Counted from the stretch's first letter, positions 57,396-62,744 are shown. The stretch: DNA of 64,000 nt from a plasmid (GCF_056712565.1 NZ_JBWXXM010000002.1); one strand, 5' to 3'. Translations and numbers: made by a program. Notes: generated from the letters alone by a model not told the origin.

Positions 57396-57590
57396 TCAGC
57401 CCGTCCGCAGGAGTTTTCGTCCTTCAGTCAACAAATGCACTACCTTTTTTGAGTCTCCACTTTCCAGAGCAGAAAACACGTTACCGATTCTACCAACAGC
57501 TTGTATCTGAGTGATAACCCCAGTCTTGTAATCATCTAGGATCCCTGACAGGAAAGCGTTCAGTTTTGTCTGTTCGCTTAGCGAAAGCAT
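57396..57590 (-). CDS. 3' portion of a small gene split by IS21-family insertion
   Basis: joining the flanks (59734..59729 with 57590 downward) reconstructs ATG TCC ATG CTT... with GGAGA RBS. Confidence 0.3.
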   Translation of the reverse strand: MLSLSEQTKLNAFLSGILDDYKTGVITQIQAVGRIGNVFSALESGDSKKVVHLLTEGRKLLRTG

Positions 57591-57653
57591 GTATGTCAAC
57601 GCCACGATGTTTGACCGTTATTTGCCATTTTCATGCCCGCTAAAATACTTTCG

Positions 57654-58454
57654 TTACTGATGCTGTCCGCTTTTCACCATTTCATCATCACTGATTGGCG
57701 TTGTGTTTTTGGTCAGCACTCCAGCTTTACGTTTCTCTTTTAACCGGTAACTCTCTCCTTTGATATTCAGCGTGGTTGAGTGATGTAGCAGCCGATCCAG
57801 GATCGCTGTTGCCAGCACGTGATCTCCGAACATTTCTCCCCAGTCTGCGAACCCTTTGTTTGACGTCAGTATGATGCTCGCTTTTTCATATCGACGGTTC
57901 AGTAGCCGGAAGAACAGGCTGGCTTCCTCTCTGTTCATCGGCAGATAGCCTATTTCATCCAGGATCAACACCCGGGCATAACTCAGTTGCTGTAGCTGAC
58001 GCTCCAGCCGGTTTTCCTGTTTCGCTTTCATCAGTGTCGCGATCAGTCTGTCCAGTGGCATAAACAGTACCCGATGTCCCGCATCCACCGCTTTCACGCC
58101 AAGAGCTATGGCCAGATGCGTTTTTCCTACACCAGGAGGTCCCAGCAGGATCACGTTTTCGCTGCGCTCCACGAACGCCAGACCAGCCAGTTCCCGAACA
58201 ACCTTACGGTCGATGCCCGGCTGGAAGGTAAAGTCGAACTGCTCCAGCGTTTTGACCCACGGCAGACGAGCCTGCTTCAGCCTGGACTCCATACCCCGCT
58301 GATGCCTGCCGTTCCATTCCTGCTGTAGCGCCATGCACAGGAACTCCCGGTAGTTCAGCTCTTTTTTAGCTGCCTGTTCCAGCAGGCTTTCAACGTGATA
58401 ACTCAGATGCTCCATTTTCAGGCGACTCAGCAGGACTTCCAGCTCATGCATCAC
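57654..58454 (-). CDS. istB: IS21-family helper ATPase IstB
   Basis: Walker [12 protein letters not shown], Walker B ILDEIG. Confidence 0.85.
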
Positions 58455-59623
58455 AACAGCTCCTCATAGGTACTCAGTGGCCGATGTTCCACCTGACTGA
58501 CCTGCTGCCAGAGCGGGGCGTGATGCTCCGGCACTGTCTGCCAGCCAGACGATGCCGAACAGAGGCGATGTGAGGCCACCAGTTTCTCATTACTGTAGAT
58601 CCGCAACTCGTCATCCAGCGATATTCGTATCGATACCGGCTGACCACACAGCGCTTCGGGAACGCTGTAACGATTACCACCAACCTCGATATAGCTGTCC
58701 CAGGACACATGGCGGATGTCGAAGTAACTGGTATCGAAGTCCGTATCGGGTAACGGCTGCAGATGTTCCTGCTCCAGCGCGAAGCGCTGTTCCGGCGTTT
58801 CTTTGAACTGACGAAGCTCCCGTTTGTCAGCCACATCGGCTATCCATTGCTCCAGTTGTTGATTGACATGAGTGAAGCTGTCGAACCTGCGGTACCGGAC
58901 GAAGAAGTTCTCCTTGAGGTATTTCACCATCCGCTCAACCTTACCTTTTGTTCTGGCCCTGCGTGGACGGCATGCCCGTGGCAGGAAGTTATAGTGGTCA
59001 GCCAGCAACAGGAATCCGGAGTTGAACACGACTTTCCCGTTGTTATTCTTCAGCACCGCAGCCTTCTGGTTATCAACCAGCACCGTTTTCACACAACCAC
59101 CGAAGTAGCGGAAGGCGCGAACCAGTGATTCGTAGGTATGCTCAGCATCCTGTTTTGGGGCAGCGAAGACATGAAAGCGGCGGGAGAACCCCAGCGTATT
59201 AACCGCAAAGTTAACTTTGCACCGTTGCCCGGCAACTTCCACCTCAACTTCGCCCCAGTCGTGCTGGAGCTGGTATCCGGGCTGAGTTTCGAAGCGAACT
59301 GTTCTTTTTGACGGACGCATTTTACGTTTGGGCTGGATGTAGTAACGCAGCATGGAACGTCCGCCCGTATAGCCCATTGCCTTAATCTCCGCGAAGATAA
59401 CCTCGCTATTCCAGACATTCTCTGCCAGGCGCATGTCGATGTAATCCATAAACGGTTTCAGCTTAACCATTTTGTGGCGGGTTTTTCTGGCTGGCGGTTC
59501 AGGGTATTTGAGGTAACGTCTGACCGTTCGTTCAGAGCAACCAATCTGAGTCGCAATATCGACAATGTACGCGCCCTGCTGGCGCATTTGCTTTATCATG
59601 TAAAAGTCCTCTCTGCTCAGCAT
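58451..59623 (-). CDS. istA: IS21-family transposase IstA
   Basis: 390 aa; HTH N-terminus, DDE region; ATGA overlap with istB. Confidence 0.85.
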
Positions 59624-59746
59624 GTTGATGTCCTTTTTGGTGTGAGAACCTTAAGGAAACAACATGTTGGGTGGAGCGGACAATCCAAATGGTGAATTAC
59701 CGTCTTATATCACTGGCGCTAACATGTAGGACATTTTTTCTCCATT

Positions 59747-61066: not shown

Positions 61067-61088
61067 AGTAGTCTCCTAAACAGGAAGT

Positions 61089-61256
61089 TTAATATCCCAA
61101 CCAGAGCAACACTTCCTGAGCGTCATACTGTTCCTTTACGCCCATGTCGCTAAAGAATTCTTCGAAATCTGTTTCGGGAACGCAATGCCTGGACAGTTCT
61201 TGTAATGCTCGTTCTTTAGATACCGTCTCACCTTCAGCTGATTCGAAATACGTCAT
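61089..61256 (-). CDS. hypothetical small protein (55 aa), not in ORF track
   Basis: hand translation MTYFESAEGETVSKERALQELSRHCVPETDFEEFFSDMGVKEQYDAQEVLLWLGY; AGAGG RBS; sits between MTase and 439-aa gene. Confidence 0.4.
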   Translation of the reverse strand: MTYFESAEGETVSKERALQELSRHCVPETDFEEFFSDMGVKEQYDAQEVLLWLGY

Positions 61257-61316
61257 GGTTGACCTCTGACATTATTACAACAATCTTAAGCATTTAAATT
61301 GATGAAGGAGCTCAGG

Positions 61317-62744
61317 TCAGCTGACTTCGTCGTAAAACTGCCGCAAGCGCTGGGAGGCTGCAAATTCAATTCGTGACTTCAGCAGTTTGGCGACGGCCGC
61401 AAAGACATCAACGACCACGGAGTTCCCAAACTGTCTGTAAGCCTGTGTATTGGACACAGGGATACGGAAAACACTTTCCCCGGGTTTATCGAAGCCCATT
61501 AGCCTGCTGCATTCACGTGGCGTTAGCATGCGTGGCCGACGGTCCATGTTGTATGTGTTATGGAAATCAGTTTCTCCCAGTTCATGAGACCAGCCCCGAT
61601 CAATAAGAATTTCAGATCCGTCTTTCATATAGCGGCTTGAGAGGGTTCTGGTGACACTATTAACATTGGAAGGATCTACTAGTCCAAAACCAAAACCATT
61701 GCCTTTTGCCGCATGTTTCTTTGCATAGTTGTATAAGTACTCCCAGAGTTTAGGGGAGAGGATGTATTTACTATCTACGCTCGGATCCAGTAAATCTGAG
61801 AGAGAAGGGCGCTTGTCCGGATAAAAGTCTTTAATGTCTCTCAGAGTAAAACCGTCTTTCAGACGTAGGTCGCGGCGAAAACCAATAAGGACGATACGTT
61901 CACGGTGCTGGGGTCGGAAATGACGGCCATCGATGACTTTAGGATCATCCGCGCCCGTGCTTTCGCTGTTTGCGACGTCGTAGCCAAGCTCATCGAGCGT
62001 TTTCATGATGATGTTAAAGGTATTACCCTTATCGTGACTCTTCAGATTTTTTACGTTTTCCAGAACAAAAATTGCAGGTTGTTTTGCCCGGATGATCCTG
62101 GCCACATCAAAGAAGAGCGTACCCTGAGTGTCGCACTCGAAACCGTGTTTGCGACCCATAGAGTTCTTTTTACTGACACCGGCGATGCTGAATGGCTGGC
62201 ATGGAAATCCCGCAAGAAGAACATCATGATCCGGGATAGAGGCATCGATAAATTTGTATGCCTCGTCATCAGTAACCTCGGGCCGGTTGCTAAGAGTGAT
62301 GTCACGGATGTCTGAATTGAAGCGGTGCTCGTTCTCATCGCAATACCAGTTCGCCCGGTAAGTACGGCTGGAATAAGTATTCCATTCGCTCGTGAAAAGA
62401 CATTTACCACCGATGGCATCAAATCCGCTTCGCAGTCCACCTATCCCTGCAAACAGATCGATAAAGCTAAAGTGCCTGTCCTCATAATCAGCAGGTCGTG
62501 AAGGTATTAAAGTCTGTAGATAGCGTCCATCTGCGATACTCAGCTCACAATGCTCAGGTATGCATGTAACCTGACGTTTAAGGGATGCACGGGACCAATT
62601 ACTGCCATTTTCATCATTTAATACCTGAGCCAGATATTTCAGGTCATAAATGGTCGAAGCTGTTAACAAAGTTTTGTGGATCAGAGATGGTGTTTTATCC
62701 ACATCATTCAGGTCTGTCTCAAGATCATGAGTGTAACGTTTCAT
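61317..62744 (-). CDS. DNA cytosine-5 methyltransferase, Dcm-like
   Basis: [10 protein letters not shown] (motif I), AGFPCQPFS (motif IV), VLENVKNL (motif VI), QFGNSV; start at MKRYTHD with GAGAGAG RBS. Confidence 0.8.

Follow-up and report, generated by a model that had tools for sequence, protein, structure and literature searches.

The DNA considered here is a 64,000-nucleotide stretch of a plasmid (GCF_056712565.1, NZ_JBWXXM010000002.1; hereafter the window), whose minus strand between positions 57396 and 62744 carries, in this order, genes encoding a DNA cytosine methyltransferase (hereafter the methylase), a 55-residue acidic protein (p55), a 439-residue protein of the DUF1173 family, and a 67-residue protein (p67) interrupted by an insertion sequence (IS) of the IS21 family. 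On balance, we consider the locus to be a composite, comprising an orphan anti-restriction methylase directed at CCWGG and a separately promoted p55-DUF1173-p67 sub-operon that would serve the mobile element. The division into two separable units is drawn from the unlike expression of the orthologs in plasmid R27, from DUF1173 loci that lack the methylase, and from a Photorhabdus locus in which a dead methylase stands beside intact partners. IncHI1 and IncHI2 conjugative plasmids share this segment as a conserved part of their backbone, and it has long been present in sequence databases; its genes and their arrangement have been there since the sequencing of R27, and the methylase is of a known kind. 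A new restriction-modification (RM) or addiction system, as proposed in the initial annotation of this DNA, is disfavored. The details that are new concern the acidic residues kept in most DUF1173 members, the OB-fold matches of this family, the relation of p55 to genes of phage early regions, a naturally occurring methylase deletion in Photorhabdus, and the repeated insertion of IS21-family elements into p67.

The four genes lie on the same strand and are separated by gaps of 60, 22, and 12 nt, a tight spacing that agrees with the operon described initially. The string ends at a terminator-like hairpin (57386..57410, minus strand; 9-bp stem with 6 G-C pairs), which was found by a consensus scan only and which, read from 57410 to 57386, overlaps the p67 stop codon between two convergent operons. 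Outside the IS, the locus is 100% identical to many Escherichia coli plasmids of 150-290 kb. The 3-kb stretch from the methylase through p55 to DUF1173 occurs in 1,118 PLSDB plasmids at approximately 100% identity (at least 80% query coverage), and 1,134 PLSDB records match it at 99% identity or more. These plasmids are mostly conjugative, and their hosts belong to the genera Escherichia, Salmonella, Enterobacter, Klebsiella, and Citrobacter. The genes around the block include ter, hns, hha, and hipA. A syntenic block, R0154-R0157 (R0153-R0158 with its flanks), is present in the IncHI1 plasmid R27, and other IncHI1B plasmids are alike. Diverged metagenomic relatives also keep the layout, with methylases 61-67% and DUF1173 proteins 52-61% identical, the divergence of the two being roughly parallel.

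The Dcm-family methylase and transcription of the block

The first gene (61317..62744, minus strand) encodes a Dcm/M.EcoRII-family DNA cytosine-5 methyltransferase of 475 residues (RefSeq WP_000833382.1); the mechanically called open reading frame (ORF) reaches a GTG at 62786 and comprises 489 residues. Residues 31-485 of this ORF scored 845.7 bits against the NCBIfam model PRK10458, 'DNA cytosine methylase' (NF007772), for which the curated cut-off is 710, and E. coli K-12 Dcm is 65% identical to the methylase over 438 residues with zero gaps, the target-recognition region included. Motifs I (FAGIGG, at 98), IV (PCQ, at 181), VI (ENV, at 229), and X (GNS, at 440) are all present, so that the Dcm-like enzyme with canonical motifs recognized at the outset is confirmed, and its top solved relatives are cytosine-specific methyltransferase entries (3me5, 3lx6). 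The R27 ortholog has been annotated as 67% identical to M.EcoRII (PMC4853401 Table S2). These similarities place the enzyme in the Dcm/M.EcoRII subfamily, and CCWGG is very likely its target because of the gap-free identity to Dcm across the target-recognition region, the subfamily score, the motifs, and the identity of the R27 ortholog to M.EcoRII. In the 64-kb window, a tblastn search with K-12 Vsr found no homolog (best E = 4.7), in line with the initial annotation, according to which none follows the methylase, and the genes downstream of the methylase are p55 and DUF1173, not the vsr of a dcm-vsr operon. CCWGG sites are mildly rarer than expected in the whole window (176 observed vs. 218.6 expected under a third-order Markov model), and only 3 of them fall within the 3 kb from the methylase to DUF1173; so slight a shortfall is not diagnostic.

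By analogy with other enzymes of this kind, protection from EcoRII-type restriction would be the most economical function of the methylase, and an anti-restriction role is the most likely one. The enzyme would methylate the inner cytosine of CCWGG in both plasmid and host DNA. As its promoter becomes active at the same time as the transfer genes, a plasmid on its way out of the donor, or becoming established in a recipient, would be protected beforehand from both EcoRII-type restriction and killing by EcoRII-like RM modules.

Expression of the orthologous genes has been measured on microarrays of R27, a plasmid whose transfer is permitted at 25 °C but not at 37 °C (PMC7366339). The methylase (R0154) gave a signal of 1714 at 25 °C and 362 at 37 °C (4.7-fold), and the thermonuclease (SNase) gene on its other side (R0153) gave 692 and 242 (2.9-fold), whereas the signals of p55 (R0155; 2598 and 2588, 1.0-fold) and DUF1173 (R0156; 2652 and 2527, 1.05-fold) were constant, and those of p67 (R0157) were 194 and 289 (-1.5-fold). 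At 37 °C, the DUF1173 signal exceeded that of the methylase approximately 7-fold. Such differing temperature responses of the methylase and of p55 and DUF1173 cannot be explained as a probe artifact. The R27 methylase is thermoregulated and p55 and DUF1173 are constitutive; the latter two are therefore fed largely by a promoter other than that of the methylase. When transfer was derepressed by mutation of htdA, the signals at 25 °C rose 11-16-fold for R0151-R0154 and R0157 and 4-5-fold for R0155 and R0156 (PMC7366339), which is consistent with read-through of the whole gene string.

A consensus scan of the 60 nt that separate p55 from the methylase revealed a candidate internal promoter (TTTAAA-16-TG-AATAAT; 61271..61298, minus strand), at a place that would suit the R27 arrays with their thermoregulated methylase and constitutive p55 and DUF1173. 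Its position is tentative: conservation of the gap sequence does not extend to R27, where no match occurs, and the scan did no better than on shuffled sequences. Upstream of the methylase, an AT-rich divergent control region (62745..62919; GC 0.36 in 62500-62999) lies between this gene and the thermonuclease gene, and a promoter-like site runs from 62912 to 62883 on the minus strand, although such consensus matches are no commoner than in shuffles. The R27 orthologs on both sides of this region are induced together at 25 °C (PMC7366339).

The DUF1173 protein, p55, and p67

The DUF1173 gene (59747..61066, minus strand) encodes a protein of 439 residues (isoelectric point, pI, 9.1) with an N-terminal zinc motif, OB-fold-like matches, and a C-terminal PD-(D/E)XK-type domain. 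The Pfam model DUF1173 (PF06666) covers residues 26-393 (E = 5.7e-39) and was the only Pfam match, with none to Vsr; searches of PADLOC, NCBIfam, and PHROGs were uninformative. A weak PADLOC match links residues 317-403 to the candidate defense protein PDC-S68 (E = 8.3e-5, 18.5 bits), where it falls at the C-terminal end (positions 1095-1181 of 1221). The only substantive literature on the family reports, for the N-terminal part, the motif CxC...H...C and, for the C-terminal part, a PD-(D/E)XK-related domain in which, according to the authors, no active-site signature is conserved, and its profile searches placed DUF1173 nearest to DUF1064 and DUF790, not to Vsr (Laganeckas et al., 2011; PMC3045609).

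The window protein has both of these features. Its zinc motif, C53-x-C55...H86-x3-C90, consists of residues that are invariant in 27 sequences and present in 178-179 of 179 family representatives (approximately 100%). In contrast to the published account, three acidic residues are conserved in most of the same 179 representatives (E335 in 94%, D365 in 83%, and E380 in 84%), and the window protein has all three; K351 (99%), D370 (98%), and K396 (83%) are conserved as well. D365 sits in FPDF and E380 in EVFG, while the canonical lysine position is occupied by F382, for which K351 or K396 might substitute. Most DUF1173 members, including the window protein, thus keep an active-site-like residue set, which a minority branch has lost.

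A confident AlphaFold model built on 27 homologs (pLDDT 88.9, pTM 0.89) agrees with database models of the family (TM-scores up to 0.98). Foldseek matches in AFDB50 were DUF1173 proteins only, the architecture being seen in no other family; Foldseek against the PDB gave no significant match for the model, and a profile search of solved-structure sequences with DUF1173 returned nothing. Nuclease-fold matches comprised RAP domains, the I-Bth0305I catalytic domain, Vsr, VRR-NUC, and Hjc, but in the case of the Vsr-like PD-(D/E)XK nucleases (Vsr, I-Bth0305I, and RAP) the fold scores were low and non-specific and sequence homology was absent. OB-fold matches comprised RPA, Stn1/Ten1, and the N-terminal domains of aminoacyl-tRNA synthetases. 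The secondary structure predicted for residues 333-413 is that of a minimal alpha-beta-beta-beta-alpha-beta nuclease core, and, taken with the published related domain, this upholds the possible PD-(D/E)XK-like C-terminus noticed initially. We regard DUF1173 as a predicted DNA-binding, zinc-dependent nuclease that is probably specific for DNA structure or single strands.

The family is large, with approximately 2,550 clusters at 50% identity, and uniform in length. Its members belong to plasmids and integrative elements, and it is found in 3,316 of 72,556 PLSDB plasmids (approximately 4.6%), of which 2,425 are conjugative. Only in the IncHI-type clade, in which DUF1173 is at least 52% identical, do the methylase and p55 occur beside it. 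Among DUF1173 loci of 43% identity or below, 31 distinct ones were covered (from Klebsiella large plasmids, Pseudomonas elements, Massilia, and 27 species-representative loci, the locus search having been made with an alignment of 16 closer sequences), and none of them has a Dcm-like methylase within 8 kb. On the Klebsiella large plasmids, DUF1173 still adjoins SNase, without a Dcm-like methylase. Clustering of 852 ORFs from 45 loci revealed no neighbor conserved across the family; neighbors are lineage-specific and include SNase, PLD/NucT nuclease, integrase, and McrB-like and PtuA-like ATPases, and most DUF1173 genes have neither p55 nor a conserved small gene upstream. The initial annotation had named the lack of partners conserved with the methylase elsewhere as evidence against its proposed module, and this is largely what was found, the linkage being limited to the IncHI-type clade.

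Within that linkage, the methylase can be lost separately. In a Photorhabdus plasmid-like contig (L003), methylase residues ~144-437 are deleted, so that motif IV through the target-recognition domain is gone, and p55, DUF1173 (439 residues, 82% identical), and p67 are intact, with the caveat that the host may have a dcm of its own. A second case is an E. coli plasmid whose methylase has lost its promoter and initial codons to an IS66, DUF1173 being untouched.

p55 (61089..61256, minus strand; 55 residues, pI 4.2) is recorded in RefSeq as WP_000220758.1. It has exactly 55 codons in IncHI2, R27, and Photorhabdus and is under purifying selection (pN 0.21 vs. pS 0.65-0.92 relative to R27 and Photorhabdus), in support of the 55-residue gene proposed at first. 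Pfam gave no match. p55 has few relatives and, phage relatives aside, is limited to the clade in which it precedes DUF1173; it matches phrog_25588 (E = 1.8e-24). Autographiviridae phages have full-length homologs that are 51-55% identical. The homolog of Pectobacterium Phimunavirus phages is the first forward gene, approximately 800 bp from the left genome end (L052 796-954), and the annotation of phage Nobby shows no methylase in its first 5 kb; that of Escherichia phage PGT2 is located approximately 1.7 kb from the left end. The left-end region of T7-like phages holds early host-takeover and anti-restriction genes. The phage link may hint at a host-takeover or anti-defense role of p55, or at modulation of DUF1173, and is offered as a lead, not a demonstration.

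p67 has exactly 67 codons in IncHI2, R27, and Photorhabdus; the R27 and Photorhabdus orthologs are 60-70% identical (pN 0.21-0.24 vs. pS 0.71-0.76 against them), and both R27 and a Citrobacter IncHI1B plasmid have the gene annotated. Pfam, PADLOC, NCBIfam, and PHROGs gave nothing informative for it. Judged by their conservation, p55 and p67 are real genes.

In the window, p67 is split by a 2131-bp IS21 element (57594..59724, minus strand; termini TGT...ACA) that is absent from IS-free plasmids. Comparison with the IS-free locus of plasmid pTB-nb4 (L001 6097..6300), of the kind suggested in the initial annotation, revealed an intact 67-residue ORF in a 204-bp gene, starting ggagaaaaaATGTCCTACATGCTT, and an empty insertion site. 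By this comparison, the first 10 nt of p67 (ATGTCCTACA) lie at 59725..59734 and the remainder at 57396..57589, both on the minus strand; the TACA target duplication is present at 59725-59728 and, preceding the remainder, at 57590..57593. The split gene with its own ribosome-binding site (GGAG) was therefore described correctly, except that its start reads ATG TCC TAC ATG CTT and not ATG TCC ATG CTT. The assignment to the IS21 family follows from istA (58451..59623; transpos_IS21, NF033546, 284.9 bits) and istB (57654..58454; IS21_help_AAA, NF038214, 301.9 bits; NCBIfam), both on the minus strand, together with the defined ends, the 4-bp TACA duplication, and the empty site. The insertion knocks out p67 only, and p67 looks dispensable. 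A GTG within the IS21 end opens a 69-residue chimeric ORF (MALTYMLSLS...; 57396-57605), which keeps all of p67 but its first three residues. At least four independent IS21-family insertions have entered p67 at different positions in different plasmids: the IS21 of the window, another IS21 cut by IS26 (NZ_AP045807.1), ISSso4 (NZ_CP038454.1), and ISEc62 (NZ_CP042895.1). The repeated insertions reflect either a target hotspot or selection for the loss of p67.

Alternative functions of the block

In the composite reading, the second unit would have its own, largely constitutive expression. The predicted DUF1173 nuclease would serve the element, through DNA processing during establishment or in conflict with the host or rival elements, and p55 would be a host-takeover or anti-defense factor or a modulator of DUF1173. 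We do not think that DUF1173 is the restriction partner of the methylase. Several points weigh against this reading. The hosts of IncHI plasmids are mostly dcm+, and the gain from an extra Dcm is not obvious. The CCWGG specificity is predicted from identity alone, and the functions of the four proteins are putative. Approximately 16% of the DUF1173 family representatives lack D365 and E380, and no family-wide neighbor hints at a pathway. The methylase-p55-DUF1173 order is kept across deep IncHI divergence and the htdA mutation raises all four genes, so that some functional coupling is possible; the htdA effect is itself non-specific, with 139 of 181 expressed genes up (PMC7366339).

An unlikely variant holds that p55-DUF1173(-p67) is an unrecognized system of conjugative elements for establishment, counter-defense, or attack on rivals. 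The zinc/OB PD-(D/E)XK nuclease would act on incoming or competing DNA, and p55, borrowed from or lent to the early genes of lytic phages, would modulate the nuclease or block host defense. The IncHI lineage would have coupled this system to a Dcm methylase, with modification and nuclease cooperating. The block would gain interest if p55 and DUF1173 proved to be such an establishment or anti-defense system.

Two further proposals appear improbable to us. According to the first, p55 and DUF1173 are a nuclease-inhibitor pair (toxin-antitoxin or immunity) for addiction, abortive defense, or inter-plasmid competition, and the methylase is merely adjacent. A gap of 22 nt does separate the gene for the acidic p55 (pI 4.2) from that for the basic putative nuclease (pI 9.1) downstream, the R27 orthologs of the two give equal, constitutive signals, and p55 is confined, its phage relatives aside, to the clade in which it precedes DUF1173. 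However, the scarcity of p55, or of any conserved small upstream gene, at most DUF1173 genes argues against a pair, as does the occurrence of p55 homologs alone in phage early regions. No PADLOC toxin-antitoxin or defense model matches, apart from the weak hit (18.5 bits) to the PDC-S68 C-terminus. Moreover, the R27 deletion Del13 (138,432-144,479; R0150-R0157), which removes the whole block, was obtained readily in dcm+ MG1655 and is not among the unstable derivatives, a marked stability loss being reported only for another deletion, Del16 (PMC4853401).

The second, of similarly low probability, is that the methylase acts chiefly in the epigenetic control of plasmid genes, for example transfer genes, and not as an anti-restriction device. 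It draws on the co-regulation of the R27 methylase with the transfer genes and on the conjugation of plasmid RIP113, which was 10-fold lower from a dcm- donor even without restriction (PMC11602122). Against it, we identified no methylation-sensitive promoter, and hosts already supply Dcm, so that isospecific regulation would be redundant; such regulation can, in any case, coexist with anti-restriction.

It is very unlikely that DUF1173 stands in for Vsr, nicking the T:G mismatches that arise by deamination of 5-methylcytosine at CCWGG and thereby offsetting the mutagenic cost of Dcm. The gene is placed downstream of a dcm-like gene, as chromosomal vsr is, and the window has no true vsr, but most DUF1173 genes have no C5-methylase nearby, expression in R27 is uncoupled from the methylase, the published profiles put the family nearest DUF1064 and DUF790 (PMC3045609), and the protein not only is three times as large as Vsr but also has additional zinc and OB-like modules.

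Least credible of all is a type II RM system isospecific with EcoRII, in which DUF1173 cuts unmethylated CCWGG, the methylase protects, and p55 is a small regulator: its gene order (methylase, small gene, endonuclease) on one strand with short gaps, the PD-(D/E)XK-type domain with conserved acidic residues, the long-standing linkage within the IncHI clade, the closeness of the methylase to M.EcoRII, and the caveat that the chromosomal Dcm of enteric hosts could mask DUF1173 toxicity are outweighed by the 31 loci without a Dcm-like methylase, the intact DUF1173 beside a methylase internally deleted in Photorhabdus or disrupted by IS66, the approximately 7-fold excess of the DUF1173 signal in R27 at 37 °C, the lack of any restriction-enzyme model matching DUF1173 in PADLOC or NCBIfam, the nature of p55 (acidic, without a Pfam domain, and found also in phages without an annotated methylase nearby), and the size and uniform length of the DUF1173 family. 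Restriction enzymes are fast-evolving, unlike this large, length-uniform family.

Plasmids of the IncHI2 and IncHI1 groups are prominent vehicles of multidrug resistance in Escherichia, Salmonella, Enterobacter, and Klebsiella. An anti-restriction device turned on with transfer, should the methylase prove to be one, would help to explain their broad host range and would be a target for limiting plasmid spread. A role for DUF1173, once assigned, would annotate thousands of mobile elements, and the link between p55 and a phage early gene is a cheap, testable lead to a new anti-defense protein.

Neighboring genes and comparison with known systems

In R27 and other IncHI loci, the genes for a PLD-family protein, a hypothetical protein, and SNase share one strand, and the methylase, p55, DUF1173, and p67 diverge from them; on the far side, a gene for a TlpA-like coiled-coil protein converges on the operon, followed by a DUF4942 gene in IncHI2 and IncHI1B loci. 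The divergent neighbor in the window encodes a thermonuclease (SNase) family protein (62920..63474, plus strand; 'parB', R0153, in R27). Its operon comprises SNase and a hypothetical protein of ~298-307 residues, as well as the PLD-family protein in R27 (R0151-R0153), and was induced along with the R27 methylase both at 25 °C and upon htdA mutation (PMC7366339). An SNase gene adjoins DUF1173 or the methylase in 12 enterobacterial loci, and SNase or PLD/NucT nucleases adjoin DUF1173 in Klebsiella, Pantoea, and Enterobacter loci.

The convergent neighbors are the genes encoding the TlpA-like protein (56127..57332, plus strand; R27 R0158 is annotated tlpA) and the DUF4942 protein (55300..56130, plus strand), a pair that keeps its synteny with the block in every IncHI-type locus. 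The large families for which plasmid leading regions are enriched include those of DUF4942 (YdiA-like putative methyltransferase; PMC11541004 supplement). Upstream of DUF4942, the window contains two minus-strand ORFs of 221 and 126 residues (53566-54669); a related locus (L005) has a 221-residue gene in a similar position with a weak DUF6884 match, and the corresponding R27 region has a RefSeq 199-residue DUF6884 protein. In Photorhabdus L003, the region beyond the DUF4942 gene (12282-14647) contains genes with reverse-transcriptase, GIIM/Intron_maturas2, and HNH domains and looks like a group II intron-type element. Rfam gave no match in 54-64 kb of the window.

One of the closest known systems is R27 R0153-R0158. 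The genes are direct orthologs in the same order, with identities of 70% (methylase), 80% (DUF1173), 62% (p55), and 60% (p67), but in R27 p67 is free of an IS and the methylase-p55 gap is 131 nt, compared with 60 nt in the window. With Dcm and M.EcoRII, the methylase shares the catalytic motifs and a subfamily score above the cut-off. It differs from chromosomal dcm, which has an overlapping vsr, in being without one, and from the EcoRII RM system, in which an endonuclease gene accompanies M.EcoRII, in having none beside it; the IncHI gene is, moreover, plasmid-borne and, in R27, induced together with transfer genes. Vsr, for its part, is a much smaller protein than the multidomain DUF1173. 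The dcm gene of plasmid pKAZ3, which gave approximately 2,700-fold protection against EcoRII (PMC11602122), likewise encodes a plasmid-borne Dcm-type enzyme without a recognized restriction partner and represents the orphan anti-restriction methyltransferases of large conjugative plasmids. For the IncHI enzyme, such protection is a prediction, and its gene differs in heading a conserved four-gene string with DUF1173.

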